Source: Eledone cirrhosa (Eukaryota). From it: 64,000 bases of DNA. This document shows, in pieces, positions 7,440 to 61,234 of the stretch (positions are counted from its first letter, which is position 1; each line of letters begins with the position of its first letter). The notes under the pieces are model-generated. The model saw only the letters and a list, made by a program, of their open reading frames with translations. It ran no database searches and was not told where the DNA came from. Made by a program: the position numbers and the translations under genes. The stretch spans positions 2,604,001-2,668,000 of the forward strand of contig OZ024764.1 of assembly GCA_964016885.1 (NCBI GenBank), in the 5' to 3' direction.

Positions 7440-10400
7440 AAACAACACCCAGTCCACACTGTGAAGTGGTCATGTAGGTGTCACAACAAACAACACCCAG
7501 TCCACACTGTAAAGTGGTCATGTAGGTGTCACAACATAAAATATCCAGTCCACACTGTAAAGTGGTCATGTAGGTGTCACAACAAAAAGTACCCAGTCCA
7601 CACTGTAAAGTGGTCATGTAGGTGTCACAACAAAAAGCACCCAGTCCACACTGTAAAGTGGTCATGTAGGTGTCACAACAAAAAGCACCCAGTCCACACT
7701 GTAAAGTGGTCATGTAGGTCTCACAACAAAAAGCACCCAGTCCACACTGTAAAGTGGTCATGTAGGTGTCACAACAAAAAGCACCCAGTCCACACTGTAA
7801 AGTGGTCATGTAGGTGTCACAACAAAAGGCACCCAGTCCACACTGTAAAGTGGTCATGTAGGTGTCACAACATAAAATATCCAGTCCACACTGTAAAGTG
7901 GTCATGTAGGCAACAAACAACACCCAGTCCACACTGTAAAGTGGTCATGTAGGTGTCACAACAAAAAGCACCCAGTCCACACTGTAAAGTGGTCATGTAG
8001 GTGTCACAACAAACAACACCCAGTCCACACTGTAAAGTGGTCATGTAGGTGTCACAACATAAAATATCCAGTCCACACTGTAAAGTGGTCATGTAGGTGT
8101 CACAACAAAAAGTACCCAGTCCACACTGTAAAGTGGTCATGTAGGTGTCACAACAAAAAGCACCCAGTCCACACTGTAAAGTGGTCATGTAGGTGTCACA
8201 ACAAAAAGCACCCAGTCCACACTGTAAAGTGGTCATGTAGGTCTCACAACAAAAAGCACCCAGTCCACACTGTAAAGTGGTCATGTAGGTGTCACAACAA
8301 AAAGCACCCAGTCCACACTGTAAAGTGGTCATGTAGGTCTCACAACAAAAAGCACCCAGTCCACACTGTAAAGTGGTCATGTAGGTGTCACAACAAAAAG
8401 TACCTAGTCCACACTGTAAAGTGGTCATGTAGGTCTCACAACAAAAAGTACCCAGTCCACACTGTAAAGTGGTCATGTAGGTGTCACAACAAAAAGCACC
8501 CAGTCCACACTGTAAAGTGGTCATGTAGGTGTCACAACAAAAAGTACCCAGTCCACACTGTAAAGTGGTCATGTAGGTGTCACAACAAAAAGCACCCAGT
8601 CCACACTGTAAAGTGGTCATGTAGGTGTCACAACAAAAGGCACCCAGTCCACACTGTAAAGTGGTCATGTAGGTGTCACAACAAAAAGCACCCAGTCCAC
8701 ACTGTAAAGTGGTCATGTAGGTGTCACAACAAAAAGCACCCAGTCCACACTGTAAAGTGGTCATGTAGGTGTCACAACAAAAAGCACCCAGTCCACACTG
8801 TAAAGTGGTCATGTAGGTCTCACAACAAAAAGCACCCAGTCCACACTGTAAAGTGGTCATGTAGGTGTCACAACAAAAAGTACCTAGTCCACACTGTAAA
8901 GTGGTCATGTAGGTCTCACAACAAAAAGTACCCAGTCCACACTGTAAAGTGGTCATGTAGGTGTCACAACAAAAAGCACCCAGTCCACACTGTAAAGTGG
9001 TCATGTAGGTGTCACAACAAAAAGTACCCAGTCCACACTGTAAAGTGGTCATGTAGGTGTCACAACAAAAAGCACCCAGTCCACACTGTAAAGTGGTCAT
9101 GTAGGTGTCACAACAAAAGGCACCCAGTCCACACTGTAAAGTGGTCATGTAGGTGTCACAACAAAAAGCACCCAGTCCACACTGTAAAGTGGTCATGTAG
9201 GTGTCACAACAAAAAGTACCCAGTCCACACTGTAAAGTGGTCATGTAGGTGTCACAACAAAAAGTACCCAGTCCACACTGTAAAGTGGTCATGTAGGTGT
9301 CACAACAAAAAGTACCCAGTCCACACTGTAAAGTGGTCATGTAGGTGTCACAACAAAAAGCACCCAGTCCACACTGTAAAGTGGTCATGTAGGTCTCACA
9401 ACAAAAAGCACCCAGTCCACACTGTAAAGTGGTCATGTAGGTGTCACAACAAAAGGCACCCAGTCCACACTGTAAAGTGGTCATGTAGGTGACACAACAA
9501 AAAGCACCCAGTCCACACTGTAAAGTGGTCATGTAGGTGTCACAACAAAAGGCACCCAGTCCACACTGTAATGTGGTCATGTAGGTCTCACAACAAAAAG
9601 CACCCAGTCCACACTGTAAAGTGGTCATGTAGGTGTCACAACAAAAGGCACCCAGTCCACACTGTAAAGTGGTCATGTAGGTGTCACAACAAAAGGCACC
9701 CAGTCCACACTGTAAAGTGGTCATGTAGGTGTCACAACAAAAGGCACCCAGTCCACACTGTAAAGTGGTCATGTAGGTGTCACAACAAAAGGCACCCAGT
9801 CCACACTGTAAAGTGGTCATGTAGGTGTCACAACAAAAAGCACCCAGTCCACACTGTAAAGTGGTCATGTAGGTGTCACAACAAAAGGCACCCAGTCCAC
9901 ACTGTAAAGTGGTCATGTAGGTGTCACAACAAAAAGCACCCAGTCCACACTGTAAAGTGGTCATGTAGGTCTCACAACAAAAAGCACCCAGTCCACACTG
10001 TAAAGTGGTCATGTAGGTGTCACAACAAAAAGTACCTAGTCCACACTGTAAAGTGGTCATGTAGGTCTCACAACAAAAAGTACCCAGTCCACACTGTAAA
10101 GTGGTCATGTAGGTGTCACAACAAAAAGCACCCAGTCCACACTGTAAAGTGGTCATGTAGGTGTCACAACAAAAAGTACCCAGTCCACACTGTAAAGTGG
10201 TCATGTAGGTGTCACAACAAAAAGCACCCAGTCCACACTGTAAAGTGGTCATGTAGGTGTCACAACAAAAGGCACCCAGTCCACACTGTAAAGTGGTCAT
10301 GTAGGTGTCACAACAAAAAGCACCCAGTCCACACTGTAAAGTGGTCATGTAGGTGTCACAACAAAAAGCACCCAGTCCACACTGTAAAGTGGTCATGTAG

Positions 10401-10780
10401 GTGTCACAACAAAAAGCACCCAGTCCACACTGTAAAGTGGTCATGTAGGTCTCACAACAAAAAGCACCCAGTCCACACTGTAAAGTGGTCATGTAGGTGT
10501 CACAACAAAAAGTACCTAGTCCACACTGTAAAGTGGTCATGTAGGTGTCACAACAAAAAGTACCCAGTCCACACTGTAAAGTGGTCATGTAGGTGTCACA
10601 ACAAAAAGTACCCAGTCCACACTGTAAAGTGGTCATGTAGGTGTCACAACAAAAAGCACCCAGTCCACACTGTAAAGTGGTCATGTAGGTGTCACAACAA
10701 AAAGTACCCAGTCCACACTGTAAAGTGGTCATGTAGGTGTCACAACAAAAAGCACCCAGTCCACACTGTAAAGTGGTCAT
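7440..10780 (+). repeat. 48-bp tandem array (~70 units) made of an internal SINE segment
   Basis: Unit CACCCAGTCCACACTGTAAAGTGGTCATGTAGGTGTCACAACAAAAAG; runs directly into the SINE body at ~10781. Confidence 0.95.
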
Positions 10781-10975
10781 ACAAAAAGCACACAGTCTAC
10801 ATTGTAAATGTCGTTGGTGCTAGGAAGGGCATCCAGCCTTAGAAAACCAGCCAGAAACACCCCTATATGAGCGAGACATGGTCACCTGACCCAACATGCC
10901 TCTAAATGGGACCTGTCTAACCCATGCTAACGTGGAAGACAGATGTTAATCGACGACGATGATGATGATGATGAT
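10781..10975 (+). mobile_element. SINE 3' half (GTTGGTG.TAGGAAGGGCATCCAGC core, CCCATGCTAGC-type end, (GAT)n tail)
   Basis: Same core and tail recur at 13280-13437, 19360-19512, 19610-19790 and, inverted, at 14775-14935 and 15735-15900. Confidence 0.8.
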
Positions 10976-10993
10976 AAGACAAACAATACTCAC

Positions 10994-11719: not shown

Positions 11720-13279
11720 TGTAGGTGTCACGACAAAAAACACACACAGTCCACGCTGTAATGTAGTCGTGTAGGTAACTCGGTAAAAAGGCTCCCAGTC
11801 CACACTGTAATGTGGTCGTGTAGGTAACATGGTAAAAAGGCTCCCAGTCCACACTGTAAAGTGGTCATGTAGGAGACACGGTAAAAAGGCTCCCAGTCCA
11901 CACTGTAAAGTGGTCATGTAGGAGACACAGTAAAAAGGCTCCCAGTCCACACTGTAAAGTGGTCATGTCGGTAACACAGTAAAAAGGCTCCCAGTCCACA
12001 CTGTAAAGTGGTCGTGTAGGAGACACGGTAAAAAGGCTCCCAGTCCACACTGTAAAGTGGTCATGTAGGAGACACAGTAAAAAGGCTCCCAGTCCACACT
12101 GTAAAGTGGTCATGTAGGAGACACAGTAAAAAGGCTCCCAGTCCACACTGTAAAGTGGTCATGTAGGTAACGCAGTAAAAAGGCTCCCAGTCCACACTGT
12201 AAAGTGGTCATGTAGGTAACACAGTAAAAAGGCTCCCAGTCCACACTGTAAAGTGGTCATGTAGGTAACACAGTAAAAAGGCTCCCAGTCCACACTGTAA
12301 AGTGGTCATGTAGGTAACACAGTAAAAAGGCTCCCAGTCCACACTGTAAAGTGGTCATGTAGGTAACTCGGTAAAAAGGCTCCCAGTCCACACTGTAAAG
12401 TGGCCGTATAGGTAACACGGTAAAAAGGCTCCCAGTCCACACTGTAAAGTGGCCGTGTAGGTAACAGTAAAAAGGCTCTCAGTCCACACTGTAAAGTGGT
12501 CATGTAGGTAACTCGGTAAAAAGGCTCCCAGTCCACACTGTAAAGTGGCCGTATAGGTAACACGGTAAAAAGGCTCCCAGTCCACACTGTAAAGTGGTCA
12601 TGGAGGTAACACAGTAAAAAGGCTCCCAGTCCACACTGTAAAGTGGTCATGTAGGTAACACAGTAAAAAGGCTCCCAGTCCACACTGTAAAGTGGTCATG
12701 TAGGAGACACAGTAAAAAGGCTCCCAGTCCACACTGTAAAGTGGTCATGTAGGTAACACAGTAAAAAGGCTCCCAGTCCACACTGTAAAGTGGTCATGGA
12801 GGTAACTCGGTAAAAAGGCTCCTAGTCCACACTGTAAAGTGGTCATGTAGGTAACACAGTAAAAAGGCTCCCAGTCCACACTGTAAAGTGGTCATGGAGG
12901 TAACTCAGTAAAAAGGCTCCTAGTCCACACTGTAAAGTGGTCATGTAGGTAACACAGTAAAAAGGCTCCCAGTCCACACTGTAAAGTGGTCATGTAGGAT
13001 ACACAGTAAAAAGGCTCCCAGTCCACACTGTAAAGTGGTCATGTCGGTAACACAGTAAAAAGGCTCCCAGTCCACACTGTAAAGTGGTCATGTAGGAGAC
13101 ACAGTAAAAAGGCTCCCAGTCCACACTGTAAAGTGGTCATGTAGGTAACACAGTAAAAAGGCTCCCAGTCCACACTGTAAAGTGGTCATGTAGGTAACAC
13201 AGTAAAAAGGCTCCCAGTCCACACTGTAAAGTGGTCATGGAGGTAACTCGGTAAAAAGGCTCCCAGTCCACACTGTAAA
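11720..13279 (+). repeat. 49-bp tandem array (~31 units), same SINE segment as 7440-10780 but a different variant
   Basis: Unit AAAAAGGCTCCCAGTCCACACTGTAAAGTGGTCATGTAGGTAACACAGT; continues into the SINE 3' half at 13280-13437. Confidence 0.95.
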
Positions 13280-13628: not shown

Positions 13629-13649
13629 CTGAAATATACAGTGACTGAT

Positions 13650-15095: not shown

Positions 15096-15099
15096 GTAT

Positions 15100-16154: not shown

Positions 16155-17187
16155 CTAGGGCGGGTAAAATTCCCGAGATCCATGGACGAGTTCTCTCCAG
16201 CGGTCTCTGTCCCTCATTATCGCTGTCATGTCCTGCGTCTCCAACAGCCCAGTGTCTGTCCTTAGGGCATCAACATACGTTAACCTTGGTCTTCCTCTTC
16301 CAGTGTGTCAATGCAGGGGCTCCCACAGGAACACTGAGTGCAGTGTCAACTCTGGATGTCAGTGAGCATGTCCAGCTAACCTCTGTCTCCCTCTTCCAGT
16401 GTGTCAATGCAGGGGCTCCCACAGGAACACTGAGTGCAGTGTCAACTCTGGATGTCGGTGAGCATGTCCAGCTAACCTCAGTCTTCCTCTTCCAATGTGT
16501 CAATGCAGGGGCTCCCACAGGAACACTGAGTGCAGTGTCAACTCTGGATGTCGGTGAGCATGTCCAGCTAACCTCAGTCTTCCTCTTCCAGTGTGTCCAT
16601 GTAGGGGCTCCCACAGGAGCACTGAGTGCAATGTCAACTCTGGATGTCGGTGAACATGTCCAGTTAACCTCAGTCTTCCTCTTCCAGTGTGTCCATGTAG
16701 GGGCTCCCGCAGGAGCACTGAGTGCAGTGTCAACTCTGGATGTCGGTGAACATGTCCAGCTAACCTCTGTCTCCCTCTTCCAGTGTGTCAATGCAGGGGC
16801 TCCCACAGGAACATTGAGTGCAGTGTCAACTCTGGATGTCGGTGAGCATGTCCAGCTAACCTCTGTCTCCCTCTTCCAGTGTGTCAATGCAGGGGCTCCC
16901 ACAGGAACACTGAGTGCAGTGTCAACTCTGGATGTCGGTGAACATGTCCAGCTAACCTCTGTCTCCCTCTTCCAGTGTGTCAATGCAGGGGCTCCCACAG
17001 GAACACTGAGTGCAGTGTCAACTCTGGATGTCGGTGAGCATGTCCAGCTAACCTCAGTCTCCTCTGTGTCACTTTTGAGCTGACTTTTGGGAAGCTCCCA
17101 TACAGCTCTGAGTTCTTCATCCTCAGTGTATACTGATTAATGTTCAGAGCCATCCTCAGCATTCTCGTGTAGCACCCATCCACCATC
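16155..17187 (-). mobile_element. 5'-truncated RTE/RTEX-like LINE 3' end with an internal 96-bp segment in 8 tandem copies
   Basis: Translation DGCYTRMLRMALNI...ELYG..PKVS..V.QRRLRLAGH..RHPE....V.LWEP.HG...GRPR..YVD.L..D is a typical RTE-group ORF2 C-terminus; flanked by (TA)n. Confidence 0.85.
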
Positions 17188-17759: not shown

Positions 17760-19360
17760 TATTGTAAAGTGGTCATGTAGGTGTCACAACAAAAAGCACC
17801 CAGTCCACTCTGTAAAGTGGTCATGTAGGTGTCACAACAAAAAGTACCCAGTCCACACTGTAAAGTGGTCATGTAGGTGTCACAACAAAAAGCACCCAGT
17901 CCACACTGTAAAGTGGTCATGTAGGTGTCACAACAAAAAGCACCCAGTCCACTCTGTAAAGTGGTCATGTAGGTGTCACAACAAAAAGTACCCAGTCCAC
18001 ACTGTAAAGTGGTCATGTAGGTGTCACAACAAAAAGTACCCAGTCCACACTGTAAAGTGGTCATGTAGGTGACACAACAAAAAGCACCCAGTCCACACTG
18101 TAAAGTGGTCATGTAGGTGTCACAACAAAAAGTACCCAGTCCACACTGTAAAGTGGTCATGTAGGTGTCACAACAAAAAGCACCCAGTCCTCTCTGTAAA
18201 GTGGTCATGTAGGTGTCACAACAAATAGTACCCAGTCCACACTGTAAAGTGGTCATGTAGGTGTCACAACAAAAAGTACCCAGTCCACACTGTAAAGTGG
18301 TCATGTAGGTGTCACAACAAAAAGTACCCAGTCCACACTGTAAAGTGGTCATGTAGGTGTCACAACAAAAAGCACCCAGTCCAATCTGTAAAGTGGTCAT
18401 GTAGGTGTCACAACAAAAAGTACCCAGTCCACACTGTAAAGTGGTCATGTAGGTGTCACAACAAACAACACCCAGTCCACACTGTAAAGTGGTCATGTAG
18501 GTGTCACAGCAAATAGTACCCAGTCCACACTGTAAAGTGGTCATGTAGGTGTCACAACAAAAAGTACCCAGTCCACACTGTAAAGTGGTCATGTAGGTGT
18601 CACAACAAAAAGTACCCAGTCCACACTGTAAAGTGGTCAGGTAGGTGTCACAACAAAAAGTACCCCGTCCACACTGTAAAGTGGTCATGTAGGTGTCACA
18701 ACAAATAGTACCCAGTCCACACTGTAAAGTGGTCATGTAGGTGTCACAACAAAAAGTACCCAGTCCACACTGTAAAGTGGTCATGTAGGTGTCACAACAA
18801 AAAGTACCCAGCCCACACTGTAAAGTGGTCATGTAGGTGTCACAACAAAGAGTACCCAGTCCACACTGTAAAGTGGTCATGTAGGTGTCACAACAAAAAA
18901 CACCCAGTCCACACTGTAAAGTGGTCATGTAGGTGTCACAACAAACAACACCCAGTCCACACTGTAAAGTGGTCATGTAGGTGTCACAACAAAAAGTACC
19001 CAGTCCACACTGTAAAGTGGTCATGTAGGTGTCACAACAAATAGTACCCAGTCCACACTGTAAAGAGGTCATGTCACAACAAATAGTACCCAGTCCACAC
19101 TGTAAAGTGGTCATGTAGGTGTCACAACAAACAACACCCAGTCCACACTGTAAAGTGGTCATGTAGGTGTCACAACAAAAAGTATCCAGTCCACACTGTA
19201 AAGTGGTCACGTAGGTGTCATGACAAACAACACCCAGTCCACACTGTAAAGTGGTCATGTAGGTGTCACAACAAAAAGTACCCAGCCCACACTGTAAAGT
19301 GGTCATGTAGGTGTCACAACAAAAAGTACCCAGCGCACACTGTAAAGTGGTCATGTAAAG
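17760..19360 (+). repeat. 48-bp tandem array (~33 units), third expansion of the same SINE segment; SINE 3' half follows at 19360-19512
   Basis: Same consensus as 7440-10780. Confidence 0.95.
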
Positions 19361-19876: not shown

Positions 19877-21135
19877 GGTAAAAGGTGTGAATGTCTCACC
19901 TGTGCTGTGACAGGTAAGGAAAAGGTGTGAATGTCTCACCTGTGACAGGTAAGGAAAAGGTGTGAATGTCTCACCTGTGACAGGTAGGTAAAAGGTGTGA
20001 ATGGCTCACCTGTGACAGGTAGGTACAAGGTGTGAATGGCTCACCTGTGACAGGTAGGTAAAAGGTGTGAATGTCTCACCTGTGACAGGTAAGGAAAAGG
20101 TGTGAATGTCTTACCTGTGACAGGTAGGTACAAGGTAGATATCAATGTCTCACCTGTGACAGGTAGGTAAAAGGTGTGAATGTCTCACCTGTGACAGGTA
20201 ATAAAAGATGTGAATGTCTCACCTGTGACAGGTAATAAAAGATGTGAATGTCTCACCTGTGTTGTGACAGGTAAGGAAAAGGTGTGAATGTCTCACCTGT
20301 GTTGTGACAGGTAATAAAAAGTGTGAATGTCTCACCTGTGTTGTGACAGGTAAGGAAAAGGTGTGAATGTCTCACCTGTGTTGTGACAGGTAATAAAAAG
20401 TGTGAATGTCTCACCTGTGTTGTGACAAGTAATAAAAGGTGTGAATGTCTCACCTGTGTTGTGACAGGTAATAAAAAGGTGTGAATGTCTCACCTGTGAC
20501 AGGTAAGTAAAAGATGTGAATGTCTCACCTGTGTTGTGACAGGTAATAAAAGATGTGAATGTCTCACCTGTGTTGTGACAGGTAAGGAAAAGGTGTGAAT
20601 GGCTCACCTGTGACAGGTAGGTAAAAGGTGTGAATGTCTCACCTGTGTTGTGACAGGTGATAAAAGATGTGAATGTCTCACCTGTGACAGGTAAGGAAAA
20701 GGTGTGAATATCTCACCTGTGTTGTGACAGGTAAGGAAAAGGTGTGAATGTCTCACCTGTGCTGTGACAGGTAAGTAAAAGATGTGAATGTCTCACCTGT
20801 GACAGGTAAGGAAAAGGTGTGAATGGCTCACCTGTGACAGGTAGGTAAAAGGTGTGAATATCTCACCTGTGTTGTGACAGGTGATAAAAGATGTGAATGT
20901 CTCACCTGTGACAGGTAAGGAAAAGGTGTGAATATCTCACCTGTGTTGTGACAGGTAAGGAAAAGGTGTGAATGTCTCACCTGTGCTGTGACAGGTAAGT
21001 AAAAGATGTGAATGTCTCACCTGTGTTGTGACAGGTAAGGAAAAGGTGTGAATGGCTCACCTGTGACAGGTAAGTAAAAGGTGTGAATGTCTCACCTGTG
21101 CTGTGACAGGTAAGTAAAAGGTGTGAATGTCTCAC
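19877..21135 (-). repeat. 35/40-bp tandem array (~33 units) that repeats the exon 21348-21136 donor junction
   Basis: Minus-strand unit GTGAGACATTCACACCTTTTACTTACCTGTCACAG(CACAG); the first unit starts exactly at the intron GT (21135). Confidence 0.92.
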
Positions 21136-21348
21136 CTGTGCTGTGTAGGTTGGCCATCACCTTCTGCCGTTGCTCCATCTCCTGCCTCAGAAGCAGCAGT
21201 TGCTGCTTCTGTTGCTGCATCAACATCTCCTGCTGCTGTATCTGCTGACGTCGCAGCTCCTTAAACCTGTGCACCAGTTGCAGTTGATGCACCTCGTGGC
21301 ACGAGCCTGCTGCTGCCGATGCTGGTGGTGCCGTGCTGCACATCTCAC
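21136..21348 (-). CDS. CENPJ: Coding exon (213 nt, phase 1->1) encoding a Q-rich coiled coil LVHRFKELRRQQIQQQEMLMQQQKQQLLLLRQEMEQRQK
   Basis: CAG acceptor, CAG|GTGAGA donor, GC-rich open frame; resembles the first coiled coil of CENPJ ([36 protein letters not shown], recalled). Confidence 0.72.
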
Positions 21349-21437: not shown

Positions 21438-22900
21438 ATATGTGTGTATATATAGGTGTGTGTATATATGTGTGTGTATATGTGTGTATATATAGGTGTG
21501 TGTATATATGTGTGTGTATATATATGTGTGTATATATGTGTGTATATATATGTGTGTATATATAGGTGTGGGTATATATGTATGTATATATGTGTGTATA
21601 TATAGGTGTGTGTATATATGTGTGTGTATATATATGTGTATATATATGTGTATATATATGTGTGTATATATAGGTGTGTGTATATATGTGTGTATATATG
21701 TGTGTATATATAGGTGTGTGTATATATATGTGTGTATATATATGTGTGTATATATAGGTGTGTGTATATATGTATGTATATATGTGTGTATATATAGGTG
21801 TGTGTATATATGTGTGTGTATATATATGTGTGTATATTCTAGGGCGGGTAAAATTCCCGAGATCCATGGACGAGTTCTCTCCAGCGGTCTCTGTCCCTCA
21901 TTATCGCTGCCATGTCCTGCGTCTCCAACAGACCACTGTCTGTCCTTAGGGCATCAACATACGTTAACCTTGGTCTTCCTCTTCTAGTGTGTCCATGTAG
22001 GGGTTCCCACAGGAGCACTGAGTGCAATGTCAACTCTGGATGTCGGTGAGCATGTCCAGCTAACCTCAGTCTCCCTCTTCTAGTGTGTCCATGTAGGGGC
22101 TCCCAAAGGAGCACTGAGTGCAGTGTCAACTCTGGATGTCGGTGAGCATGTCCAGCTAATCTCAGTCTCCTCTGTGTCACTTTTGAGCTGACTTTTGGGA
22201 TGCTCCCGTACAGCTCTGAGTTTTTCATCCTCAGTGTATACTGATTAATGTTCAGAGCAATCCTCAGCATTCTCGTGTGTATATAGGTGTGTATATAGGT
22301 GTGTGTATATATGTGTGTATATATGTGTATGTATATAGGTGTGTATATATGTGTGTGTATATGTGTGTGTATATATGTGTGTATATAGGTGTGTGTATAT
22401 ATATGTGTGTGTATATAGGTGTGTATATATGTGTGTATATATGTGTGTGTATATATGTGTGTGTATATAGGTGTGTGTATATAGGTGTGTATATATGTGT
22501 GTGTATATAGGTGTGTGTATATAGGTGTGTGTATATGTGCGTGTATATAGGTGTGTGTATATATGTGCGTGTATATAGGTGTGTGTATATATGTGTGTGT
22601 ATATAGGTATGTGTGTATATATGTGTGTATATAGGTGTGTGTATATATATGTGTGTATATATGTGTGTATATATGTGTGTGTATATAGGTGTGTGTATAT
22701 ATGTGTATATAGGTGTGTATATATGTGCGTGTATATAGGTGCGTGTATATAGGTGTGTGTATATAGGTGTGTGTATATAGGTGTGTATATATGTGTGCAT
22801 ATATGTGTGTATATGTGCGTATATAGGTGTGCGTATATATGTGTGTGTATATATGTGTGTGTATATATGTGTGTGTATATAGGTGGGTGTATATATCGTG
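21438..22900. repeat. Compound (TA)/(TG) microsatellite with recurring TATAGGTGTG, interrupted by a LINE fragment
   Basis: Directly visible on both sides of 21838-22276. Confidence 0.9.
21838..22276 (-). mobile_element. Second copy of the same RTE/RTEX-like LINE 3' end, with the 96-bp segment in only 2 copies
   Basis: ORF 21839..22270; near-identical to 16155-17187 outside the repeated segment. Confidence 0.85.
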
Positions 22901-30342: not shown

Positions 30343-30750
30343 TGTACCAATTTATTCGGAGTAGTAGCTCTATTAGACGGGTTGCCTACGTGACATGTGG
30401 AGAAATGCTGTGCTGAATAGGACCCGTCTCACCCTTGCAAGCATGGAAAAGCAGACATAAAATGATGATGATGATGATGATGATTGGGTGTAAGCAGGTC
30501 TCTCTGGAAATAGGGTTGGAGTGTGCTGAGGGTATTTTGTGGCCGTGAGAAGGGGTTTGGCCCCAAAGGTTTGTAAACCTCTGCTGAAATTGTCTGTCTC
30601 TCAGTTTGTCTTCACATCTTTTTGTCTATCTCTCTATCTATTTATCTATCTACATCAATGTAAAAGGTAAACAGAAATAACAACACAATCGGTACAGTAT
30701 AGGGAAGGAATATATTAGGTTAACGCTTGATATAGCAGGAAGAGGGTATT

Positions 30751-46000: not shown

Positions 46001-49000
46001 TTTGTTCCATAGAGGTTTGTTCCATGGAGGTTTTAAAGGATGCAGTGTCTCGACAGCTAACAACTGATGCAGCTAGTTTGTTCCATGGAAGTTGTAAAGG
46101 ATGCAGTGTCTCGACAGCTAACAACTGATGCAGGTAGTTTGTTCCATGGAGGTTTTAATGGATGCAGTGTCTCGACAGCTAACAACTGATGCAGGTAGTT
46201 TGTTCCATGGAGGTTTTAATGGATGCAGTGTCTCGACAGCTAACAACTGATGCAGGTAGTTTGTTCCATGGAGGTTTTAATGGATGCAGTGTCTCGACAG
46301 CTAACAACTGATGCAGGTAGTTTGTTCCATGGAAGTTGTAAAGGATGCAGTGTCTCAACAGCTAACAACTGATGCAGCTAGTTTGTTCCATAGAGGTTTG
46401 TTCCATGGAGGTTTTAAAGGATGCAGTGTCTCGACAACTAACAACTGATGCAGGTAGTTTGTTCCATTGTTCCATGGAGGTTTTAAAGGATGCAGTGTCT
46501 CGACAGCTAACAACTGATGCAGGTAGTTTGTTCCATGGAGGTTTTAATGGATGCAGTGTCTCGACAGCTAACAACTGATGCAGGTAGTTTGTTCCATGGA
46601 GGTTTTAATGGATGCAGTGTCTCGACAGCTAACAACTGATGCAGGTAGTTTGTTCCATGGAGGTTTTAATGGATGCAGTGTCTCGACAGCTAACAACTGA
46701 TGCAGGTAGTTTGTTCCATGGAGGTTTTAATGGATGCAGTGTCTCGACAGCTAACAACTGATGCAGGTAGTTTGTTCCATGGAGGTTTTAATGGATGCAG
46801 TGTCTCGACAGCTAACAACTGATGCAGGTAGTTTGTTCCATGGAAGTTGTAAAGGATGCAGTGTCTCAACAGCTAACAACTGATGCAGCTAGTTTGTTCC
46901 ATAGAGGTTTGTTCCATGGAGGTTTTAAAGGATGCAGTGTCTCGACAACTAACAACTGATGCAGGTAGTTTGGTCCATTGTTCCATGGAGGTTTTAAAGG
47001 ATGCAGTGTCTCGACAACTAACAACTGATGCAGGTAGTTTGTTCCATTGTTCCATGGAGGTTTTAAAGGATGCAGAGTCTCGACAGCTAACAACTGATGC
47101 AGGTAGTTTGTTCCATGGAGGTTTTAATGGATGCAGTGTCTCGACAGCTAACAACTGATGCAGGTAGTTTGTTCCATGGAGGTTTTAATGGATGCAGTGT
47201 CTCGACAGCTAACAACTGATGCAGGTAGTTTGTTCCATGGAAGTTGTAAAGGATGCAGTGTCTCAACAGCTAACAACTGATGCAGCTAGTTTGTTCCATA
47301 GAGGTTTTAAAGGATGCAGTGTCTCGACAACTAACAACTGATGCAGGTAGTTTGTTCCATTGTTCCATGGAGGTTTTAAAGGATGCAGAGTCTCGACAGC
47401 TAACAACTGATGCAGGTAGTTTGTTCCATGGAGGTTTTAATGGATGCAGTGTCTCGACAGCTAACAACTGATGCAGGTAGTTTGTTCTATGGAGGTTTTA
47501 ATGGATGCAGTGTCTCGACAGCTAACAACTGATGCAGGTAGTTTGTTCCATGGAGGTTTTAATGGATGTAGTGTCTCGACAGCTAACAACTGATGCAGGT
47601 AGTTTGTTCCATGGAGGTTTTAAAGGATGCAGTGTCTCGACAGCTAACAACTGATGCAGGTAGTTTGTTCCATGGAAGTTGTAAAGGATGCAGTGTCTCG
47701 ACAGCTAACAACTGATGCAGGTAGTTTGTTCCATGGAGGTTTTAAAGGATGCAGTGTCTCGACAGCTAACAACTGATGCAGGTAGTTTGTTCCATGGAAG
47801 TTGTAAAGGATGCAGTGTCTCGACAGCTAACAACTGATGCAGCTAGTTTGTTCCATGGAAGTTGTAAAGGATGCAGTGTCTCGACAGCTAACAACTGATA
47901 CTGGTAGTTTGTTCCATAGAGGTTTTAAAGGATGCAGTGTCTCGACAACTAACAACTGATGCAGGTAGTTTGTTCCATGGAGGTTTTAAAGGATGCAGTG
48001 TCTCGACAGCTAACAACTGATACTGGTAGTTTGTTCCATAGAGGTTTTAAAGGATGCAGTGTCTCGACAGCTAACAACTGATGCAGGTAGTTTGTTCCAT
48101 GGAGGTTTTAAAGGATGCAGTGTCTCAACAGCTAACAACTGATACAGGTAGTTTGTTCCATGGAGGTTTTAAAGGATGCAGTGTCTCGACAGCTAACAAC
48201 TGATGCAGGTAGTTTGTTCCATGGAGGTTTTAAAGGGTGCAGTGTCTCGACAGCTAACAACTGATGCAGGTAGTTTGTTCCATGGAGGTTTTAAAGGATG
48301 CAGTGTCTCAACAGCTAACAACTGATGCAGGTAGTTTGTTCCATGGAGGTTTTAAAGGATGCAGTGTCTCGACAGCTAACAACTGATGCAGGTAGTTTGT
48401 TCCATGGAGGTTTTAAAGGATGCAGTGTCTCGACAGCTAACAACTGATGCAGGTAGTTTGTTCCATGGAGGTTGTAAAGGATGCAGTGTCTCGACAGCTA
48501 ACAACTGATGCAGGTAGTTTGTTCCATGGAGGTTTTAAAGGGTGCAGTGTCTCGACAACTAACAACTGATGCAGGTAGTTTGTTCCATGGAGGTTTTAAA
48601 GGGTGTAGTGTCTCGACAGCTAACAACTGATGCAGGTAGTTTGTTCCATGGAGGTTTTAAAGGGTGCAGTGTCTCGACAACTAACAACTGATGCAGGTAG
48701 TTTGTTCCATGGAGGTTTTAAAGGATGCAGTGTCTCGACAGCTAACAACTGATGCTGGTAGTTTGTTCCATGGAGGTTTTAAAGGATGCAGTGTCTCGAC
48801 AGTTAACAACTGATGCAGGTAGTTTGTTCCATGGAGGTTGTAAAGGATGCAGTGTCTCGACAGCTAACAACTGATGCAGCTAGTTTGTTCCATGGAGGTT
48901 TTAAAGGATGCAGTGTCTCGACAGCTAACAACTGATGCAGGTAGTTTGTTCCATGGAGGTTTTAAAGGATGCAGTGTCTCGACAGTTAACAACTGATGCA

Positions 49001-49390
49001 GGGAGTTTGTTCCATGGACGTTTGTTCCATGGAGGTTTTAATGGATGCAGTGTCTCGACAGCTAACAACTGATGCAGGTAGTTTGTTCCATGGAGGTTGT
49101 AAAGGATGCAGTGTCTCGACAGCTAACAACTGATGCAGCTAGTTTGTTCCATGGAGGTTTTAAAGGATGCAGTGTCTCGACAGCTAACAACTGATGCAGG
49201 TAGTTTGTTCCATGGAGGTTTTAAAGGATGCAGTGTCTCGACAGTTAACAACTGATGCAGGGAGTTTGTTCCATGGACGTTTGTTCCATGGAGGTTTTAA
49301 TGGATGCAGTGTCTCGACAGCTAACAACTGATGCAGGTAGTTTGTTCCATGCTTCAGCATGCGAAGAAGCCGGAAAAATTTCCTTGAGTT
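34012..49390 (-). mobile_element. CR1-like LINE 3' end whose ORF2 terminal 61 bp is expanded into a 15-kb satellite
   Basis: Right flank reads ..FF...AEAWNKLPASVV; left flank ..KTLMLPEIRQNYT* then 3' UTR ending GTGCACCTGAGCACTGTACACAATATTTTC(ATT)n. Confidence 0.78.
34203..49350. repeat. 61-bp satellite (~240 units) with higher-order structure
   Basis: Unit GATGCAGTGTCTCGACAGCTAACAACTGATGCAGGTAGTTTGTTCCATGGAGGTTTTAAAG. Confidence 0.97.
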
Positions 49391-50844: not shown

Positions 50845-53800
50845 ACTGCAGCTGACTTCTACTGGCATCTCTTGATAACTTCTTCACCCAGCAATCATCA
50901 TCCATATACACCACACACATCACATGTCTATACCAGTGCAGTCTTCTCTCTCTGCCCAGGTCTTCCTCTTCTGCAGCTCCCTTCTACTGGCATCTCTTGA
51001 TAACTTCTTCACCCAGCAATCATCATCCATATACACCACACACATCACATGTCTATACCAGTGCAGTCTTCTCTCTCTGCCCAGGTCTTCCTCTTCTGCA
51101 GCTCCCTTCTACTGGCATCTCTTGATAACTTCTTCACCCAGCAATCATCATCCATATACATCACACACATCACATGTCTATACCAGTGCAGTCTTCTCTC
51201 TCTGCCCAGGTCTTCTTCTACTGCAGCTGATTTCTACTGGCATCTCTTGATAACTTCTTCACCCAGCAATCATCATCCATATACACCACACACATCACAT
51301 GTCTATACCAGTGCAGTCTTCTCTCTCTGCCCAGGTCTTCCTCTTCTGCAGCTCCCTTCTACTGGCAAGTCTTGATAACTTCTTCACCCAGCAATCATCA
51401 TCCATATACATCACACACATCACATGTCTATACCAGTGCAGTCTTCTCTCTCTGCCCAGGTCTTCCTCTTCTGCAGCTCCCTTCTACTGGCATCTCTTGA
51501 TAACTTCTTCACCCAGCAATCATCATCCATATACATCACACACATCACATGTCTATACCAGTGCAGTCTTCTCTCTCTGCCCAGGTCTTCTTCTACTGCA
51601 GCTGATTTCTACTGGCATCTCTTGATAACTTCTTCACCCAGCAATCATCATCCATATACACCACACACATCACATGTCTATACCAGTGCAGTCTTCTCTC
51701 TCTGCCCAGGTCTTCCTCTTCTGCAGCTCCCTTCTACTGGCAAGTCTTGATAACTTCTTCACCCAGCAATCATCATCCATATACATCACACACATCACAT
51801 GTCTATACCAGTGCAGTCTTCTCTCTCTGCCCAGGTCTTCCTCTTCTGCAGCTCCCTTCTACTGGCAAGTCTTGATAACTTCTTCACCCAGCAATCATCA
51901 TCCATATACACCACACACATCACATGTCTATACCAGTGCAGTCTTCTCTCTCTGCCCAGGTCTTCCTCTTCTGCAGCTCCCTTCTACTGGCAAGTCTTGA
52001 TAACTTCTTCACCCAGCAATCATCATCCATATACACCACACACATCACATGTCTATACCAGTGCAGTCTTCTCTCTCTGCCCAGGTCTTCCTCTTCTGCA
52101 GCTGACTTCTACTGGCAAGTCTTGATATCTTCTTCACCCAGCAATCATCATCCATATACACCACACACATCACATGTCTATACCAGTGCAGTCTTCTCTC
52201 TCTGCCCAGGTCTTCCTCTACTGCAGCTGACTTCTACTGGCAAGTCTTGATAACTTCTTCACCCAGCAATCATCATCCATATACACCACACACATCACAT
52301 GTCTATACCAGTGCAGTCTTCTCTCTCTGCCCAGGTCTTCCTCTACTGCAGCTGACTTCTACTGGCAAGTCTTGATAACTTCTTCACCCAGCAATCATCA
52401 TCCATATACACCACACACATCACATGTCTATACCAGTGCAGTCTTCTCTCTCTGCCCAGGTCTTCCTCTACTGCAGCTGACTTCTACTGGCATCTCTTGA
52501 TAACTTCTTCACCCAGCAATCATCATCCATATACATCACACACATCACATGTCTATACCAGTGCAGTCTTCTCTCTCTGCCCAGGTCTTCCTCTACTGCA
52601 GCTCCCTTCTACTGGCAAGTCTTGATAACTTCTTCACCCAGCAATCATCATCCATATACACCACACACATCACATGTCTATACCAGTGCAGTCTTCTCTC
52701 TCTGCCCAGGTCTTCCTCTACTGCAGCTGACTTCTACTGGCAAGTCTTGATATCTTCTTCACCCAGCAATCATCATCCATATACATCACACACATCACAT
52801 GTCTATACCAGTGCAGTCTTCTCTCTCTGCCCAGGTCTTCCTCTACTGCAGCTGACTTCTACTGGCAAGTCTTGATAACTTCTTCACCCAGCAATCATCA
52901 TCCATATACACCACACACATCACATGTCTATACCAGTGCAGTCTTCTCTCTCTGCCCAGGTCTTCCTCTACTGCAGCTCCCTTCTACTGGCAAGTCTTGA
53001 TAACTTCTTCACCCAGCAATCATCATCCATATACACCACACACATCACATGTCTATACCAGTGCAGTCTTCTCTCTCTGCCCAGGTCTTCCTCTACTGCA
53101 GCTGACTTCTACTGGCAAGTCTTGATATCTTCTTCACCCAGCAATCATCATCCATATACATCACACACATCACATGTCTATACCAGTGCAGTCTTCTCTC
53201 TCTGCCCAGGTCTTCCTCTTCTGCAGCTCCCTTCTACTGGCAAGTCTTGATAACTTCTTCACCCAGCAATCATCATCCATATACACCACACACATCACAT
53301 GTCTATACCAGTGCAGTCTTCTCTCTCTGCCCAGGTCTTCCTCTACTGCAGCTGACTTCTACTGGCATCTCTTGATAACTTCTTCACCCAGCAATCATCA
53401 TCCATATACATCACACACATCACATGTCTATACCAGTGCAGTCTTCTCTCTCTGCCCAGGTCTTCCTCTACTGCAGCTGACTTCTACTGGCATCTCTTGA
53501 TAACTTCTTCACCCAGCAATCATCATCCATATACACCACACACATCACATGTCTATACCAGTGCAGTCTTCTCTCTCTGCCCAGGTCTTCCTCTACTGCA
53601 GCTGACTTCTACTGGCATCTCTTGATAACTTCTTCACCCAGCAATCATCATCCAAATACACCACACACATCACATGTCTATACCAGTGCAGTCTTCTCTC
53701 TCTGCCCAGGTCTTCCTCTTCTGCAGCTCCCTTCTACTGGCAAGTCTTGATAACTTCTTCACCCAGCAATCATCATCCATATACATCACACACATCACAT

Positions 53801-56800
53801 GTCTATACCAGTGCAGTCTTCTCTCTCTGCCCAGGTCTTCCTCTACTGCAGCTGACTTCTACTGGCAAGTCTTGATATCTTCTTCACCCAGCAATCATCA
53901 TCCATATACACCACACACATCACATGTCTATACCAGTGCAGTCTTCTCTCTCTGCCCAGGTCTTCCTCTTCTGCAGCTCCCTTCTACTGGCAAGTCTTGA
54001 TAACTTCTTCACCCAGCAATCATCATCCATATACATCACACACATCACATGTCTATACCAGTGCAGTCTTCTCTCTCTGCCCAGGTCTTCCTCTTCTGCA
54101 GCTCCCTTCTACTGGCAAGTCTTGATATCTTCTTCACCCAGCAATCATCATCCATATACACCACACACATCACATGTCTATACCAGTGCAGTCTTCTCTC
54201 TCTGCCCAGGTCTTCCTCTACTGCAGCTGACTTCTACTGGCAAGTCTTGATAACTTCTTCACCCAGCAATCATCATCCATATACACCACACACATCACAT
54301 GTCTATACCAGTGCAGTCTTCTCTCTCTGCCCAGGTCTTCCTCTACTGCAGCTGACTTCTACTGGCAAGTCTTGATATCTTCTTCACCCAGCAATCATCA
54401 TCCATATACACCACACACATCACATGTCTATACCAGTGCAGTCTTCTCTCTCTGCCCAGGTCTTCCTCTACTGCAGCTGACTTCTACTGGCAAGTCTTGA
54501 TAACTTCTTCACCCAGCAATCATCATCCATATACATCACACACATCACATGTCTATACCAGTGCAGTCTTCTCTCTCTGCCCAGGTCTTCCTCTTCTGCA
54601 GCTCCCTTCTACTGGCAAGTCTTGATAACTTCTTCACCCAGCAATCATCATCCATATACATCACACACATCACATGTCTATACCAGTGCAGTCTTCTCTC
54701 TCTGCCCAGGTCTTCCTCTTCTGCAGCTCCCTTCTACTGGCAAGTCTTGATATCTTCTTCACCCAGCAATCATCATCCATATACACCACACACATCACAT
54801 GTCTATACCAGTGCAGTCTTCTCTCTCTGCCCAGGTCTTCCTCTACTGCAGCTGACTTCTACTGGCAAGTCTTGATAACTTCTTCACCCAGCAATCATCA
54901 TCCATATACACCACACACATCACATGTCTATACCAGTGCAGTCTTCTCTCTCTGCCCAGGTCTTCCTCTACTGCAGCTGACTTCTACTGGCAAGTCTTGA
55001 TAACTTCTTCACCCAGCAATCATCATCCATATACACCACACACATCACATGTCTATACCAGTGCAGTCTTCTCTCTCTGCCCAGGTCTTCCTCTACTGCA
55101 GCTGACTTCTACTGGCAAGTCTTGATAACTTCTTCACCCAGCAATCATCATCCATATACACCACACACATCACATGTCTATACCAGTGCAGTCTTCTCTC
55201 TCTGCCCAGGTCTTCCTCTACTGCAGCTGACTTCTACTGGCAAGTCTTGATAACTTCTTCACCCAGCAATCATCATCCATATACACCACACACATCACAT
55301 GTCTATACCAGTGCAGTCTTCTCTCTCTGCCCAGGTCTTCCTCTTCTGCAGCTGACTTCTACTGGCAAGTCTTGATAACTTCTTCACCCAGCAATCATCA
55401 TCCATATACACCACACACATCACATGTCTATACCAGTGCAGTCTTCTCTCTCTGCCCAGGTCTTCCTCTTCTGCAGCTGACTTCTACTGGCAAGTCTTGA
55501 TATCTTCTTCACCCAGCAATCATCATCCATATACACCACACACATCACATGTCTATACCAGTGCAGTCTTCTCTCTCTGCCCAGGTCTTCCTCTACTGCA
55601 GCTGACTTCTACTGGCAAGTCTTGATAACTTCTTCACCCAGCAATCATCATCCATATACACCACACACATCACATGTCTATACCAGTGCAGTCTTCTCTC
55701 TCTGCCCAGGTCTTCCTCTACTGCAGCTGACTTCTACTGGCAAGTCTTGATATCTTCTTCACCCAGCAATCATCATCCATATACACCACACACATCACAT
55801 GTCTATACCAGTGCAGTCTTCTCTCTCTGCCCAGGTCTTCCTCTACTGCAGCTGACTTCTACTGGCAAGTCTTGATAACTTCTTCACCCAGCAATCATCA
55901 TCCATATACATCACACACATCACATGTCTATACCAGTGCAGTCTTCTCTCTCTGCCCAGGTCTTCCTCTACTGCAGCTGACTTCTACTGGCAAGTCTTGA
56001 TATCTTCTTCACCCAGCAATCATCATCCATATACACCACACACATCACATGTCTATACCAGTGCAGTCTTCTCTCTCTGCCCAGGTCTTCCTCTACTGCA
56101 GCTGACTTCTACTGGCAAGTCTTGATAACTTCTTCACCCAGCAATCATCATCCATATACACCACACACATCACATGTCTATACCAGTGCAGTCTTCTCTC
56201 TCTGCCCAGGTCTTCCTCTTCTGCAGCTCCCTTCTACTGGCAAGTCTTGATAACTTCTTCACCCAGCAATCATCATCCATATACATCACACACATCACAT
56301 GTCTATACCAGTGCAGTCTTCTCTCTCTGCCCAGGTCTTCCTCTTCTGCAGCTCCCTTCTACTGGCAAGTCTTGATAACTTCTTCACCCAGCAATCATCA
56401 TCCATATACACCACACACATCACATGTCTATACCAGTGCAGTCTTCTCTCTCTGCCCAGGTCTTCCTCTTCTGCAGCTGACTTCTACTGGCAAGTCTTGA
56501 TATCTTCTTCACCCAGCAATCATCATCCATATACACCACACACATCACATGTCTATACCAGTGCAGTCTTCTCTCTCTGCCCAGGTCTTCCTCTACTGCA
56601 GCTGACTTCTACTGGCAAGTCTTGATAACTTCTTCACCCAGCAATCATCATCCATATACATCACACACATCACATGTCTATACCAGTGCAGTCTTCTCTC
56701 TCTGCCCAGGTCTTCCTCTTCTGCAGCTCCCTTCTACTGGCATCTCTTGATAACTTCTTCACCCAGCAATCATCATCCATATACATCACACACATCACAT

Positions 56801-59800
56801 GTCTATACCAGTGCAGTCTTCTCTCTCTGCCCAGGTCTTCCTCTACTGCAGCTCCCTTCTACTGGCATCTCTTGATAACTTCTTCACCCAGCAATCATCA
56901 TCCATATACACCACACACATCACATGTCTATACCAGTGCAGTCTTCTCTCTCTGCCCAGGTCTTCCTCTACTGCAGCTCCCTTCTACTGGCAAGTCTTGA
57001 TAACTTCTTCACCCAGCAATCATCATCCATATACACCACACACATCACATGTCTATACCAGTGCAGTCTTCTCTCTCTGCCCAGGTCTTCCTCTACTGCA
57101 GCTGACTTCTACTGGCAAGTCTTGATATCTTCTTCACCCAGCAATCATCATCCATATACATCACACACATCACATGTCTATACCAGTGCAGTCTTCTCTC
57201 TCTGCCCAGGTCTTCCTCTACTGCAGCTGACTTCTACTGGCAAGTCTTGATAACTTCTTCACCCAGCAATCATCATCCATATACACCACACACATCACAT
57301 GTCTATACCAGTGCAGTCTTCTCTCTCTGCCCAGGTCTTCCTCTACTGCAGCTGACTTCTACTGGCAAGTCTTGATAACTTCTTCACCCAGCAATCATCA
57401 TCCATATACATCACACACATCACATGTCTATACCAGTGCAGTCTTCTCTCTCTGCCCAGGTCTTCCTCTACTGCAGCTGACTTCTACTGGCAAGTCTTGA
57501 TAACTTCTTCACCCAGCAATCATCATCCATATACATCACACACATCACATGTCTATACCAGTGCAGTCTTCTCTCTCTGCCCAGGTCTTCCTCTACTGCA
57601 GCTGACTTCTACTGGCAAGTCTTGATAACTTCTTCACCCAGCAATCATCATCCATATACATCACACACATCACATGTCTATACCAGTGCAGTCTTCTCTC
57701 TCTGCCCAGGTCTTCCTCTACTGCAGCTGACTTCTACTGGCATCTCTTGATATCTTCTTCACCCAGCAATCATCATCCATATACACCACACACATCACAT
57801 GTCTATACCAGTGCAGTCTTCTCTCTCTGCCCAGGTCTTCCTCTACTGCAGCTGACTTCTACTGGCAAGTCTTGATATCTTCTTCACCCAGCAATCATCA
57901 TCCATATACATCACACACATCACATGTCTATACCAGTGCAGTCTTCTCTCTCTGCTCAGGTCTTCCTCTACTGCAGCTCCCTTCTACTGGCAAGTCTTGA
58001 TAACTTCTTCACCCAGCAATCATCATCCATATACACCACACACATCACATGTCTATACCAGTGCAGTCTTCTCTCTCTGCCCAGGTCTTCCTCTACTGCA
58101 GCTGACTTCTACTGGCAAGTCTTGATAACTTCTTCACCCAGCAATCATCATCCATATACACCACACACATCACATGTCTATACCAGTGCAGTCTTCTCTC
58201 TCTGCCCAGGTCTTCCTCTACTGCAGCTGACTTCTACTGGCAAGTCTTGATAACTTCTTCACCCAGCAATCATCATCCATATACACCACACACATCACAT
58301 GTCTATACCAGTGCAGTCTTCTCTCTCTGCCCAGGTCTTCCTCTACTGCAGCTGACTTCTACTGGCAAGTCTTGATAACTTCTTCACCCAGCAATCATCA
58401 TCCATATACATCACACACATCACATGTCTATACCAGTGCAGTCTTCTCTCTCTGCCCAGGTCTTCTTCTACTGCAGCTGACTTCTACTGGCAAGTCTTGA
58501 TAACTTCTTCACCCAGCAATCATCATCCATATATATCACACACATCACATGTCTATACCAGTGCAGTCTTCTCTCTCTGCCCAGGTCTTCCTCTACTGCA
58601 GCTCCCTTCTACTGGCAAGTCTTGATAACTTCTTCACCCAGCAATCATCATCCATATACACCACACACATCACATGTCTATACCAGTGCAGTCTTCTCTC
58701 TCTGCCCAGGTCTTCCTCTTCTGCAGCTCCCTTCTACTGGCAAGTCTTGATAACTTCTTCACCCAGCAATCATCATCCATATACACCACACACATCACAT
58801 GTCTATACCAGTGCAGTCTTCTCTCTCTGCCCAGGTCTTCCTCTACTGCAGCTGACTTCTACTGGCAAGTCTTGATATCTTCTTCACCCAGCAATCATCA
58901 TCCATATACACCACACACATCACATGTCTATACCAGTGCAGTCTTCTCTCTCTGCCCAGGTCTTCCTCTACTGCAGCTGACTTCTACTGGCAAGTCTTGA
59001 TATCTTCTTCACCCAGCAATCATCATCCATATACACCACACACATCACATGTCTATACCAGTGCAGTCTTCTCTCTCTGCCCAGGTCTTCCTCTTCTGCA
59101 GCTCCCTTCTACTGGCAAGTCTTGATAACTTCTTCACCCAGCAATCATCATCCATATACATCACACACATCACATGTCTATACCAGTGCAGTCTTCTCTC
59201 TCTGCTCAGGTCTTCCTCTACTGCAGCTCCCTTCTACTGGCAAGTCTTGATAACTTCTTCACCCAGCAATCATCATCCATATACACCACACACATCACAT
59301 GTCTATACCAGTGCAGTCTTCTCTCTCTGCCCAGGTCTTCCTCTACTGCAGCTGACTTCTACTGGCAAGTCTTGATAACTTCTTCACCCAGCAATCATCA
59401 TCCATATACACCACACACATCACATGTCTATACCAGTGCAGTCTTCTCTCTCTGCCCAGGTCTTCCTCTTCTGCAGCTGATTTCTACTGGCATCTCTTGA
59501 TAACTTCTTCACCCAGCAATCATCATCCATATACATCACACACATCACATGTCTATACCAGTGCAGTCTTCTCTCTCTGCCCAGGTCTTCCTCTACTGCA
59601 GCTGATTTCTACTGGCATCTCTTGATAACTTCTTCACCCAGCAATCATCATCCATATACATCACACACATCACATGTCTATACCAGTGCAGTCTTCTCTC
59701 TCTGCCCAGGTCTTCCTCTTCTGCAGCTCCCTTCTACTGGCAAGTCTTGATAACTTCTTCACCCAGCAATCATCATCCATATACATCACACACATCACAT

Positions 59801-60105
59801 GTCTATACCAGTGCAGTCTTCTCTCTCTGCCCAGGTCTTCCTCTACTGCAGCTGACTTCTACTGGCATCTCTTGATATCTTCTTCACCCAGTAATCATCA
59901 TCCATATACACCACACACATCACATGTCTATACCAGTGCAGTCTTCTCTCTCTGCCCAGGTCTTCCTCTACTGCAGCTGACTTCTACTGGCATCTCTTGA
60001 TATCTTCTTCACCCAGCAATCATCATCCATATACATCACACACATCACATGTCTATACCAGTGCAGTCTTCTCTCTCTGCCCAGGTCTTCCTCTACTGCA
60101 GCTCC
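50845..60105 (-). repeat. 125-bp satellite (~74 units) derived from an RTE-like LINE ORF2 C-terminus
   Basis: Minus-strand unit GAGAGAAGACTGCACTGGTATAGACATGTGATG...ATGGATGATGATTGCTGGGTGAAGAAG...ATGCCAGTAGAAGG...GAGGAAGACC matches 27825-27931 (ERRL.WY.HVM..MDDD.WVKK..EMPVEG...RGRP). Confidence 0.92.
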
Positions 60106-60170
60106 CTGGTATCTCATGGCACTTCCATCCATACACATCACATGTCTATACCAGCACAGCTTTCCCTCAA

Positions 60171-61234
60171 CCCATTAGCATTTAAACCAACCATATCCGG
60201 CTAGAATTCTCTCACTTCTTTCTGATCAAACCGGCTGTAACTGGCCACTCATACTGATGTTAAGGTATTGTTCTCAAAATAAATAATATCAAAATCTCAA
60301 TGTTATGTGATATATTATGCCTTTACTGTGGAAATACAACAGTATATATAGAGTAATGTAAATGTTATGTGAGATATTATGTGAGGTAAAGCCTTTACTG
60401 TGAAAATACAATAGTATATATAGAGTAATGTAAATGTTATGTGAGATATTATGTGAGGTAAAGCCTTTACTGTGAAAATACAATAGTATATATAGAGTAA
60501 TGTAAATGTTATGTGAGATATTATGTGAGGTAAAGCCTTTACTGTGAAAATACAATAGTATATATAGAGTAATGTAAATGTTATGTGAGATATTATGTGA
60601 GGTAAAGCCTTTACTGTGAAAATACAATAGTATATATAGAGTAATGTAAATATTATGTGAGATATTATGTGAGGTAAAGCCTTTACTGTGACAATACAAT
60701 AGTATATATAGAGTAATGTAAATGTTATGTGAGATATTACGTGAGGTAAAGCCTTTACTGTGAAAATTCAATAGTATATATAGAGTAATGTAAATGTTAT
60801 GTGAGATATTATGTGAGGTAAAGACTTTACTGTGACAATACAATAGTATATATAGAGTAATGTAAATGTTATGTGAGATATTATGTGAGGTAAAGCCTTT
60901 ACTGTGAAAATACAATAGTATATATAGAGTAATGTAAATGTTATGTGAGATATTATGTGAGGTAAAGCCTTTACTGTGAAAATACAATAGTATATATAGA
61001 GTAATGTAAATTTTATGTGAGATATTATGTGAGGTAAAGACTTTACTGTGACAATACAATAGTATATATAGAGTAATGTAAATGTTATGTGAGATATTAT
61101 GTGAGGTAAAGCCTTTACTGTGAAAATACAATAGTATATATAGAGTAATGTAAATGTTATGTGAGGTATTATGTGAGGTAAAGCCCTTACTGTGAAAATA
61201 CAATAGTATATATAGAGTAATGTATGCTAAAGGG
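60171..61234. mobile_element. piggyBac-like MITE with an internal 72-bp segment in ~13 tandem copies (60297-61224)
   Basis: Termini tcaa|CCCATTAGCAT ... ATGCTAAAGGG|ttaa: near-perfect TIR, CCC ends, TTAA-type target site (left copy TCAA). Confidence 0.72.

Follow-up and report, generated by a model that had tools for sequence, protein, structure and literature searches.

The window studied here is a stretch of 64,000 nucleotides from Eledone cirrhosa (GenBank assembly GCA_964016885.1, 3.0 Gb; contig OZ024764.1), covering positions 2,604,001-2,668,000 of a 29.4-Mb chromosome that we call C25; tandem repeats detected by Tandem Repeats Finder (TRF) make up 77% of it. Twelve of its arrays consist of internal segments of transposable elements (TEs), among them short and long interspersed nuclear elements (SINEs and LINEs) and a miniature inverted-repeat transposable element (MITE). 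Our principal conclusion is that these arrays belong to genome-wide families of TE-internal minisatellites that are concentrated on small chromosomes, and that single-unit TE copies likely gain them mainly by out-of-register ectopic recombination from array-bearing copies of the same family, a reading to which we assign a probability of about two in three. A more sweeping form of this idea, which could be termed satellite homing, is that new minisatellites arise mainly by ectopic import of tandem junctions into naive parent-TE copies, in SINEs, LINEs and MITEs and mostly on small chromosomes; we would put this only a little above even odds.

A first-pass annotation, made from the letters of the window, had listed the twelve arrays and reported parent-element sequence beside them, and both statements hold. 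TRF periods and copy numbers match all twelve, and in every case alignment with dispersed copies runs past the array edge into at least one flank. Both flanks are well supported for seven arrays (those starting at 11747, 16281, 21965, 26661, 27376, 33294 and 60319) and one flank for four (7446, 17763, 28485 and 34208); for the array at 50845, whose flanks are both short, the left flank matches the parent at 18 loci and the right flank weakly (2 loci). The twelve arrays represent nine unit families, and thus fewer independent cases than their number. Every one of their units is also found outside tandem arrays, dispersed over 5-115 other fetched loci; for the unlisted window arrays at 13644, 19880, 30939 and 61464 a dispersed unit was found in 0-1 fetched loci, and for the array at 1-7281 in 0. 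The listed arrays have the marks of TE-derived minisatellites, namely an internal dispersed-repeat segment, a flank in register and a typical family copy that lacks the array. The majority of dispersed family copies chosen by flank similarity have a single unit, so the arrays arose after insertion, as the first-pass annotation had supposed, and several TE classes and non-TE DNA are affected alike. Arrays of at least three units were present in 1/19, 2/29, 1/29, 2/29, 0/29 and 2/29 of such copies, and in 11/29 for the MITE. Arrays built into family consensus sequences, which would have spoken against that supposition, were found only in rudimentary form: in the commonest SINE, 32 non-array copies naturally hold an imperfect direct repeat whose two parts are spaced by 48 bp, which is a seed and not an array.

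The 61-bp family, carried by a CR1-like LINE, allows host and unit sequence to be told apart. Its flanks split at 100/98 support into a young subfamily (A) and an old one (B). Five positions of the 61-bp segment distinguish the two, and the unit junction holds two of these positions. Nearly all 61-bp arrays carry B-type units, as expected where the host itself is B. The host in the window is A, its flank being 98-99% identical to young single-unit copies; the first junction of its array is A-type, and the inner junctions are B-type in 236/236 scored. This is also the largest array (239 copies), and it stands in a very young host copy, so size is not age. A search with another A-flank array copy returned 40 tandem matches, and the top 28 loci were examined; the 26 that were new, together with L022, L027 (L-numbers denote sampled or fetched loci outside the window) and the window, give 29 A-flank arrays. 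In all 29, unit 1 has an A junction and at least one inner junction is B-type; the B junction forms the majority in 28 and is the sole junction in 3/3 dimers. Of 142 middle units, 99, 87 and 63 carry the three other B states, which are seen in 4, 4 and 6, respectively, of the 26 A singles. Because the search query favoured B junctions, exact 25-letter junctions were also counted genome-wide, giving 37 native A-type junctions at 6 places versus 19,809 of B-type. Matches to flank plus junction lie on small chromosomes in 36/40 cases versus 8/35 placed flank-only matches. The older subfamily has the B junction as its native left boundary, so these bases are not an artefact made at the junction; a fold-back origin was rejected, since its bases are that native boundary and travel with the three other B states. 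An earlier candidate, that 61-bp arrays all share derived variants relative to singles, was likewise discarded, because most lie in subfamily B, which owns those bases. Within the CR1-like 61-bp arrays, the import suggested by these bases is evident only in the A-flank cases. Elsewhere in this family, the entire 10 kb of L165 (C1:20.0 Mb) is a shorter-period satellite from a sub-segment of the 61-bp region.

Foreign units also appear in other families. Two 96-bp arrays in RTE-like LINE copies, at 16281 and at L142 (C25:0.80 Mb, found blind and 1.8 Mb away), are separate insertions, yet each is a mosaic in which two unit types are mixed, and the two have in common four unit variants and a junction substitution that none of 22 singles carries. 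Of 27 MITE arrays, 21 have a readable leader of their own, and the 26-nt inner linker is absent from that leader in 11/21, including the window array at 60319, and matches it in 4/21. In SINEs, the 48-bp unit consensus is identical or 98% alike across hosts whose flanks are 73-84% identical, and unit identity is uncorrelated with flank identity (rho 0.02, 231 pairs); in the array at 11747, the first unit is native-like and the inner units are a mixture of variants found in another subfamily. The units are therefore not derived from their own host at 34208, 16281 and 60319, or in the SINE arrays other than 26661 and 28485, and the same derived junction recurs at unlinked loci with independent flanks in the CR1-like, RTE-like and MITE families. 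As a separate observation, 101-bp SINE copies on C25 (26661-27200, L312, L313, L315 and L335), arrays and singles both, have variants that are uncommon elsewhere, of which three fall at CpG sites and one does not, and 5/39 non-self best matches of the flank lie on C25; this pattern hints at chromosome-local conversion.

Array-bearing source elements could instead have transposed, the LINE fragments in trans and the MITE directly, with copies on large chromosomes then contracting and those on small ones keeping or extending their arrays. We consider this improbable overall, though it may apply to the MITE. There is precedent, in that non-autonomous elements and MITEs with central tandem repeats disperse satellites, according to the accessible part of one report (10.1101/2023.04.24.538079), and the MITE leaders that match the common linker are what such a history would produce. 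Array labels are more clustered on the CR1-like flank tree than in shuffles, and B-state patches occur in some single copies, as contraction would leave. Five such young single-unit copies on large chromosomes (L039, L035, L037, L048 and L049) have patches of old-subfamily bases, which could be either short conversion tracts or contracted arrays. Yet the 29 A-flank arrays have differing insertion flanks and are interspersed among the singles of the flank tree, with 14 changes, a single clade of them is rejected (p-AU, from the approximately unbiased test, 0.018), and they occupy more than one A sub-haplotype with differing first units. In addition, units of 61, 79, 80 and 125 bp would disrupt a reading frame, and young copies are mostly single-unit.

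The arrays are not peculiar to this locus, which the first-pass annotation had described as undergoing locus-wide conversion. Among 27 chromosome-scale contigs seen (four of 379-443 Mb, four of 94-136 Mb and nineteen of 22-61 Mb), we refer to the last nineteen, with 27% of placed DNA, as small chromosomes. Sampling of the genome covered 99 segments, each 10 kb long and placed at a round coordinate picked by the analyst, with two of them flanking the window: 20 on C25, 31 on other small chromosomes, 25 within 30 Mb of large-chromosome ends and a thin 23 in large interiors. Arrays with a period of at least 30 and at least 3 copies occur in 17/20 of the C25 samples, 17/31 from other small chromosomes, 13/25 from large ends and 3/23 from large interiors; the corresponding densities per 10 kb are 1.40, 1.26, 0.64 and 0.22, against 2.3 in the window. 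Matches to the window's 61-bp array, 97-98% identical, lie on 13 further chromosomes, the array's B-type junction, as counted above, is anything but confined to the locus, and the units in general are genome-wide families with fixed registers that recur on many chromosomes. The idea that the window shows a satellite-birth series is therefore not supported, as its units are such families and array size is no measure of age. The phenomenon is compartment-wide, not locus-wide.

The compartment bias that the first-pass annotation had suggested is, by contrast, strong. Besides the densities, hand-scoring of flank-selected copies found arrays in 18/89 on small chromosomes versus 0/95 on large ones; the MITE flank query touched the array start, and hence the count was also made without MITEs (8/69 versus 0/87, p=0.001). 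Per copy, arrays of at least 3 units in seven families number 26/79 on C25, 33/197 on other small chromosomes, 4/64 in distal and 6/114 in interior parts of large chromosomes, a tally that leaves out MITE anchors, two families with fewer than 12 copies and the 125-bp family, whose flank query matched a neighbouring MITE. The interior figure of this tally contains one false call and counts one case twice. A subtelomeric effect, also raised in the first-pass annotation, is thus seen in array density but not per copy (4/64 distal versus 6/114 interior, p=0.75). In 47/89 sampled arrays the unit is also a dispersed repeat (C25 18/28, other small chromosomes 22/40, large ends 7/16, interiors 0/5), and dispersed repeats make up 58%, 47%, 48% and 27% of non-array DNA in the same classes; with a small library, all these shares are lower bounds. 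The TE share of arrays is about that of the surrounding DNA, so the process is not TE-specific.

Several points weigh against import from other copies. The query that gave the 40 tandem matches itself had a B junction and was biased towards such matches, and exact junction patterns overlook mutated junctions. The flank tree is built on 185 columns; most of its inner branches lack support, its bootstrap had not settled, and its singles and arrays were chosen by different queries. One diagnostic CR1 site and three of the four diagnostic sites in the 101-bp SINE are CpGs, at which changes can recur. No donor copy was traced for the arrays. Finally, some arrays were born where they stand: at L153, with an 80-bp register, all 6/6 units have the subfamily haplotype of their own host; L085 matches its native SINE; native A junctions are present in the C4 interior; and the 81-bp register of L011 argues against universal import. 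Such local births are real but uncommon in the one family counted, the CR1-like one.

These cases support an alternative in which the mechanism of the first-pass annotation is extended to all small chromosomes: every copy would expand a segment of its own, independently, through slippage seeded by microhomology or through unequal exchange, and the compartment would determine how often. Repeats encoded by the family would then explain the common registers, and recurrent mutation the shared variants. Fixed direct repeats do bound the units, as this requires, L153, L085, L011 and the 37 native junctions are clear native examples, and enrichment of non-TE arrays is seen in the same parts of the genome, with the TE share of arrays following that of the surrounding DNA. 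As a general explanation we nevertheless find it unlikely: local births cannot yield old-subfamily junctions in 29/29 young copies, dimers included, nor MITE linkers that are missing from the host's own leader, nor a non-template junction base common to two RTE-like insertions. The local slippage or unequal exchange invoked by the first-pass annotation therefore operates in some copies, but many junctions and units are ones that the host copy could not supply, so it is insufficient alone.

Assembly artefacts could mimic these patterns if repeats had been over-expanded or reads of paralogous arrays merged into single loci. Within the 61-bp array, positions 35986-41444 hold a 2,263-bp exact duplicate at a lag of 3,196, along with other long exact matches. 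It stems either from unequal exchange in the very recent past or from duplication during assembly; the latter is what over-expansion would produce, and the ambiguity leaves the length of that array uncertain by some kilobases. Likewise, records from public runs (short contigs and reduced-representation reads), with a 1.6-kb stretch tested, spanned no array, and long-array lengths are given here as assembled. However, the units are ~3-12% divergent and form ordered mosaics and higher-order patterns, short public-run contigs cross unit junctions of the 80-bp array, and dozens of loci with dimers or trimers show the same arrangement. An artefact thus seems very improbable as the source of the overall picture.

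How might import work? We envisage three steps. First, the short direct repeats observed in each family (4-20 bp) would occasionally seed a local tandem duplication, which would account for the fixed registers. Second, once abundant, arrays may become templates: a break in a single-unit copy could be repaired on an array by synthesis-dependent strand annealing, or a circle of units could integrate by homology, and either route would leave the flanks and first junction native and the inner junctions foreign, which is the arrangement that we see at independent insertions. Third, unequal exchange within an array would rapidly change copy number. The rate would be set by chromosome compartment, in line with the observed small-chromosome bias, probably through recombination or break density. 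Transposons would then serve as substrate and docking sites, and transposition would not be the driver.

If ectopic import is the main route, every dispersed TE family would offer its own satellite a ready network of places to land. Donor and recipient are usually indistinguishable when satellites spread, whereas here subfamily-diagnostic bases tag host and imported units; with the two marked apart and a range from single units through dimers to 239 copies at many loci, local birth, conversion and circle integration become countable. The tandem-repeat load of small chromosomes and the growth of introns may stem from ectopic exchange among TE copies. Moreover, such conversion would distort TE ages and consensus sequences in genomes of this kind.

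The arrays of the window are collected in Table 1. We take the MITE at 60319 to be piggyBac-like, and the RTE, CR1 and CRE labels are our own assignments from motifs in translations; Pfam searches of the short element fragments returned no retroelement match for pieces so labelled. The CENPJ label that the first-pass annotation gave to the surrounding gene was not confirmed, as Pfam, protein atlas and PDB searches of the putative exons gave no usable match.

Table 1. Tandem arrays in the window, with host element and observations (positions are those of the window).
Position	Strand	Unit and copies	Host or source	Observations
7446..10780	+	48 bp x 69.6	SINE	Right parent flank; consensus identical to arrays at unlinked loci
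11747..13279	+	49 bp x 31.3	Young SINE	Both flanks supported
16281..17062	-	96 bp x 8.1	RTE-like LINE 3' fragment	Two unit types in mosaic
17763..19357	+	48 bp x 33.4	SINE	Unit 98% identical to that at 7446, flanks 80%
19880..21145	-	35/40 bp x ~34	Apparent exon end plus GT donor	Non-TE (0 dispersed matches)
21965..22170	-	96 bp x 2.1 (dimer)	Second RTE-like copy	Register as at 16281
26661..27071	+	101 bp x 4.1	SINE	Register shared with C25:0.27 and C25:1.39 Mb
27376..27857	+	80 bp x 6.1	Second RTE-like family	Register shared with C25:8.1 and 9.0 Mb
28485..30343	-	89 bp x 21.0	Begins in reverse-oriented SINE	Parent mainly on the left; 5 dispersed loci
33294..33759	+	79 bp x 5.9	Endonuclease-like region of CRE-like element	Both flanks; class presumed
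34208..49351	-	61 bp x 239	Young (type A) CR1-like 3' end	Element ends ~10 bp past array
50845..60103	-	125 bp x 74.1	RTE-like segment	Short parent flanks
60319..61224	.	72 bp x 12.6	Inside MITE	Short terminal inverted repeats, TTAA at ends; inner 26-nt linker unlike own leader

Other repeats were also noticed in the window and on C25. The array at 19880-21145 on the minus strand repeats an exon end and its GT donor ~34 times after a glutamine-rich putative exon (21149-21350), and the donors are, from the sequence, apparent candidates for as many alternative 5' splice sites. A non-TE 51-bp array at 30939-31190 recurs ~200 kb away at L145 (C25:2.40 Mb), where it forms arrays of 13.5 and 32.2 copies, so non-TE units also spread locally. 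Positions 1-7281 are a TG-rich satellite with 24/46/70-bp periods, and the adjoining 10 kb (L146) is 98% tandem repeat; no dispersed parent was found. Three near-full SINE copies stand in tandem at 24353-24947 (199 bp x 2.9), another lies inverted at ~25040-25240, and a putative minus-strand exon holds degenerate 48-bp in-frame repeats (11141-11447). Finally, an 84-bp array at L154:4699-5162 (C25:11.0 Mb), tallied with the non-TE arrays, reads like what we presume to be tandem C2H2 zinc fingers.

Minisatellites are already known to be seeded by TEs and to be more frequent on small chromosomes. Human minisatellites derived from Alu and long terminal repeat (LTR) elements, a mouse B1-derived variable number tandem repeat and the MaLR-derived Ms6-hm and Hm-2 are described in the accessible part of one paper (PMC9659126). 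Like these Alu/LTR, B1 and MaLR minisatellites, the Eledone arrays are internal TE segments amplified in place, and this has happened in many members of a family and in several TE classes. In contrast to them, the per-copy frequency here is high (26/79 on C25), arrays reach 15 kb, and inner units often come from a subfamily other than that of the host, for which the same part of that paper has no description. Small chicken chromosomes are richer in minisatellites and in dispersed satellite families (PMC4992247), an enrichment like ours, although TE-internal origin and copy-to-copy transfer are not described in the sections available. The main text of a 2026 octopus repeat annotation (PMC13282606) is silent on TE-internal arrays, and a literature search that did not cover most subscription papers returned none on cephalopod TE-internal minisatellites or on import of arrays into parent-TE copies.

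Two systems bear more directly on spread between loci, again as far as the accessible text of each report goes. For the movement of Drosophila Rsp-like repeats into 1.688 clusters, interlocus gene conversion or reintegration of extrachromosomal circular DNA (eccDNA), seeded by homologous repeats, has been proposed (PMC7403614). A junction shared by many loci is common to that case and ours, but Rsp-like repeats dock in another satellite on one chromosome, whereas the docking sites here are the parent TE's own copies with one unit, on different chromosomes and in SINEs, LINEs and a MITE. For the Cast satellites of Tribolium castaneum, eccDNA and transposition were proposed and gene conversion was discounted (10.1101/2023.04.24.538079). 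As in that beetle, we find long dispersed arrays and signs of recent exchange between chromosomes; by contrast, Cast arrays have TE-poor surroundings and irregular ends, whereas the arrays described here lie in register inside homologous TE copies.

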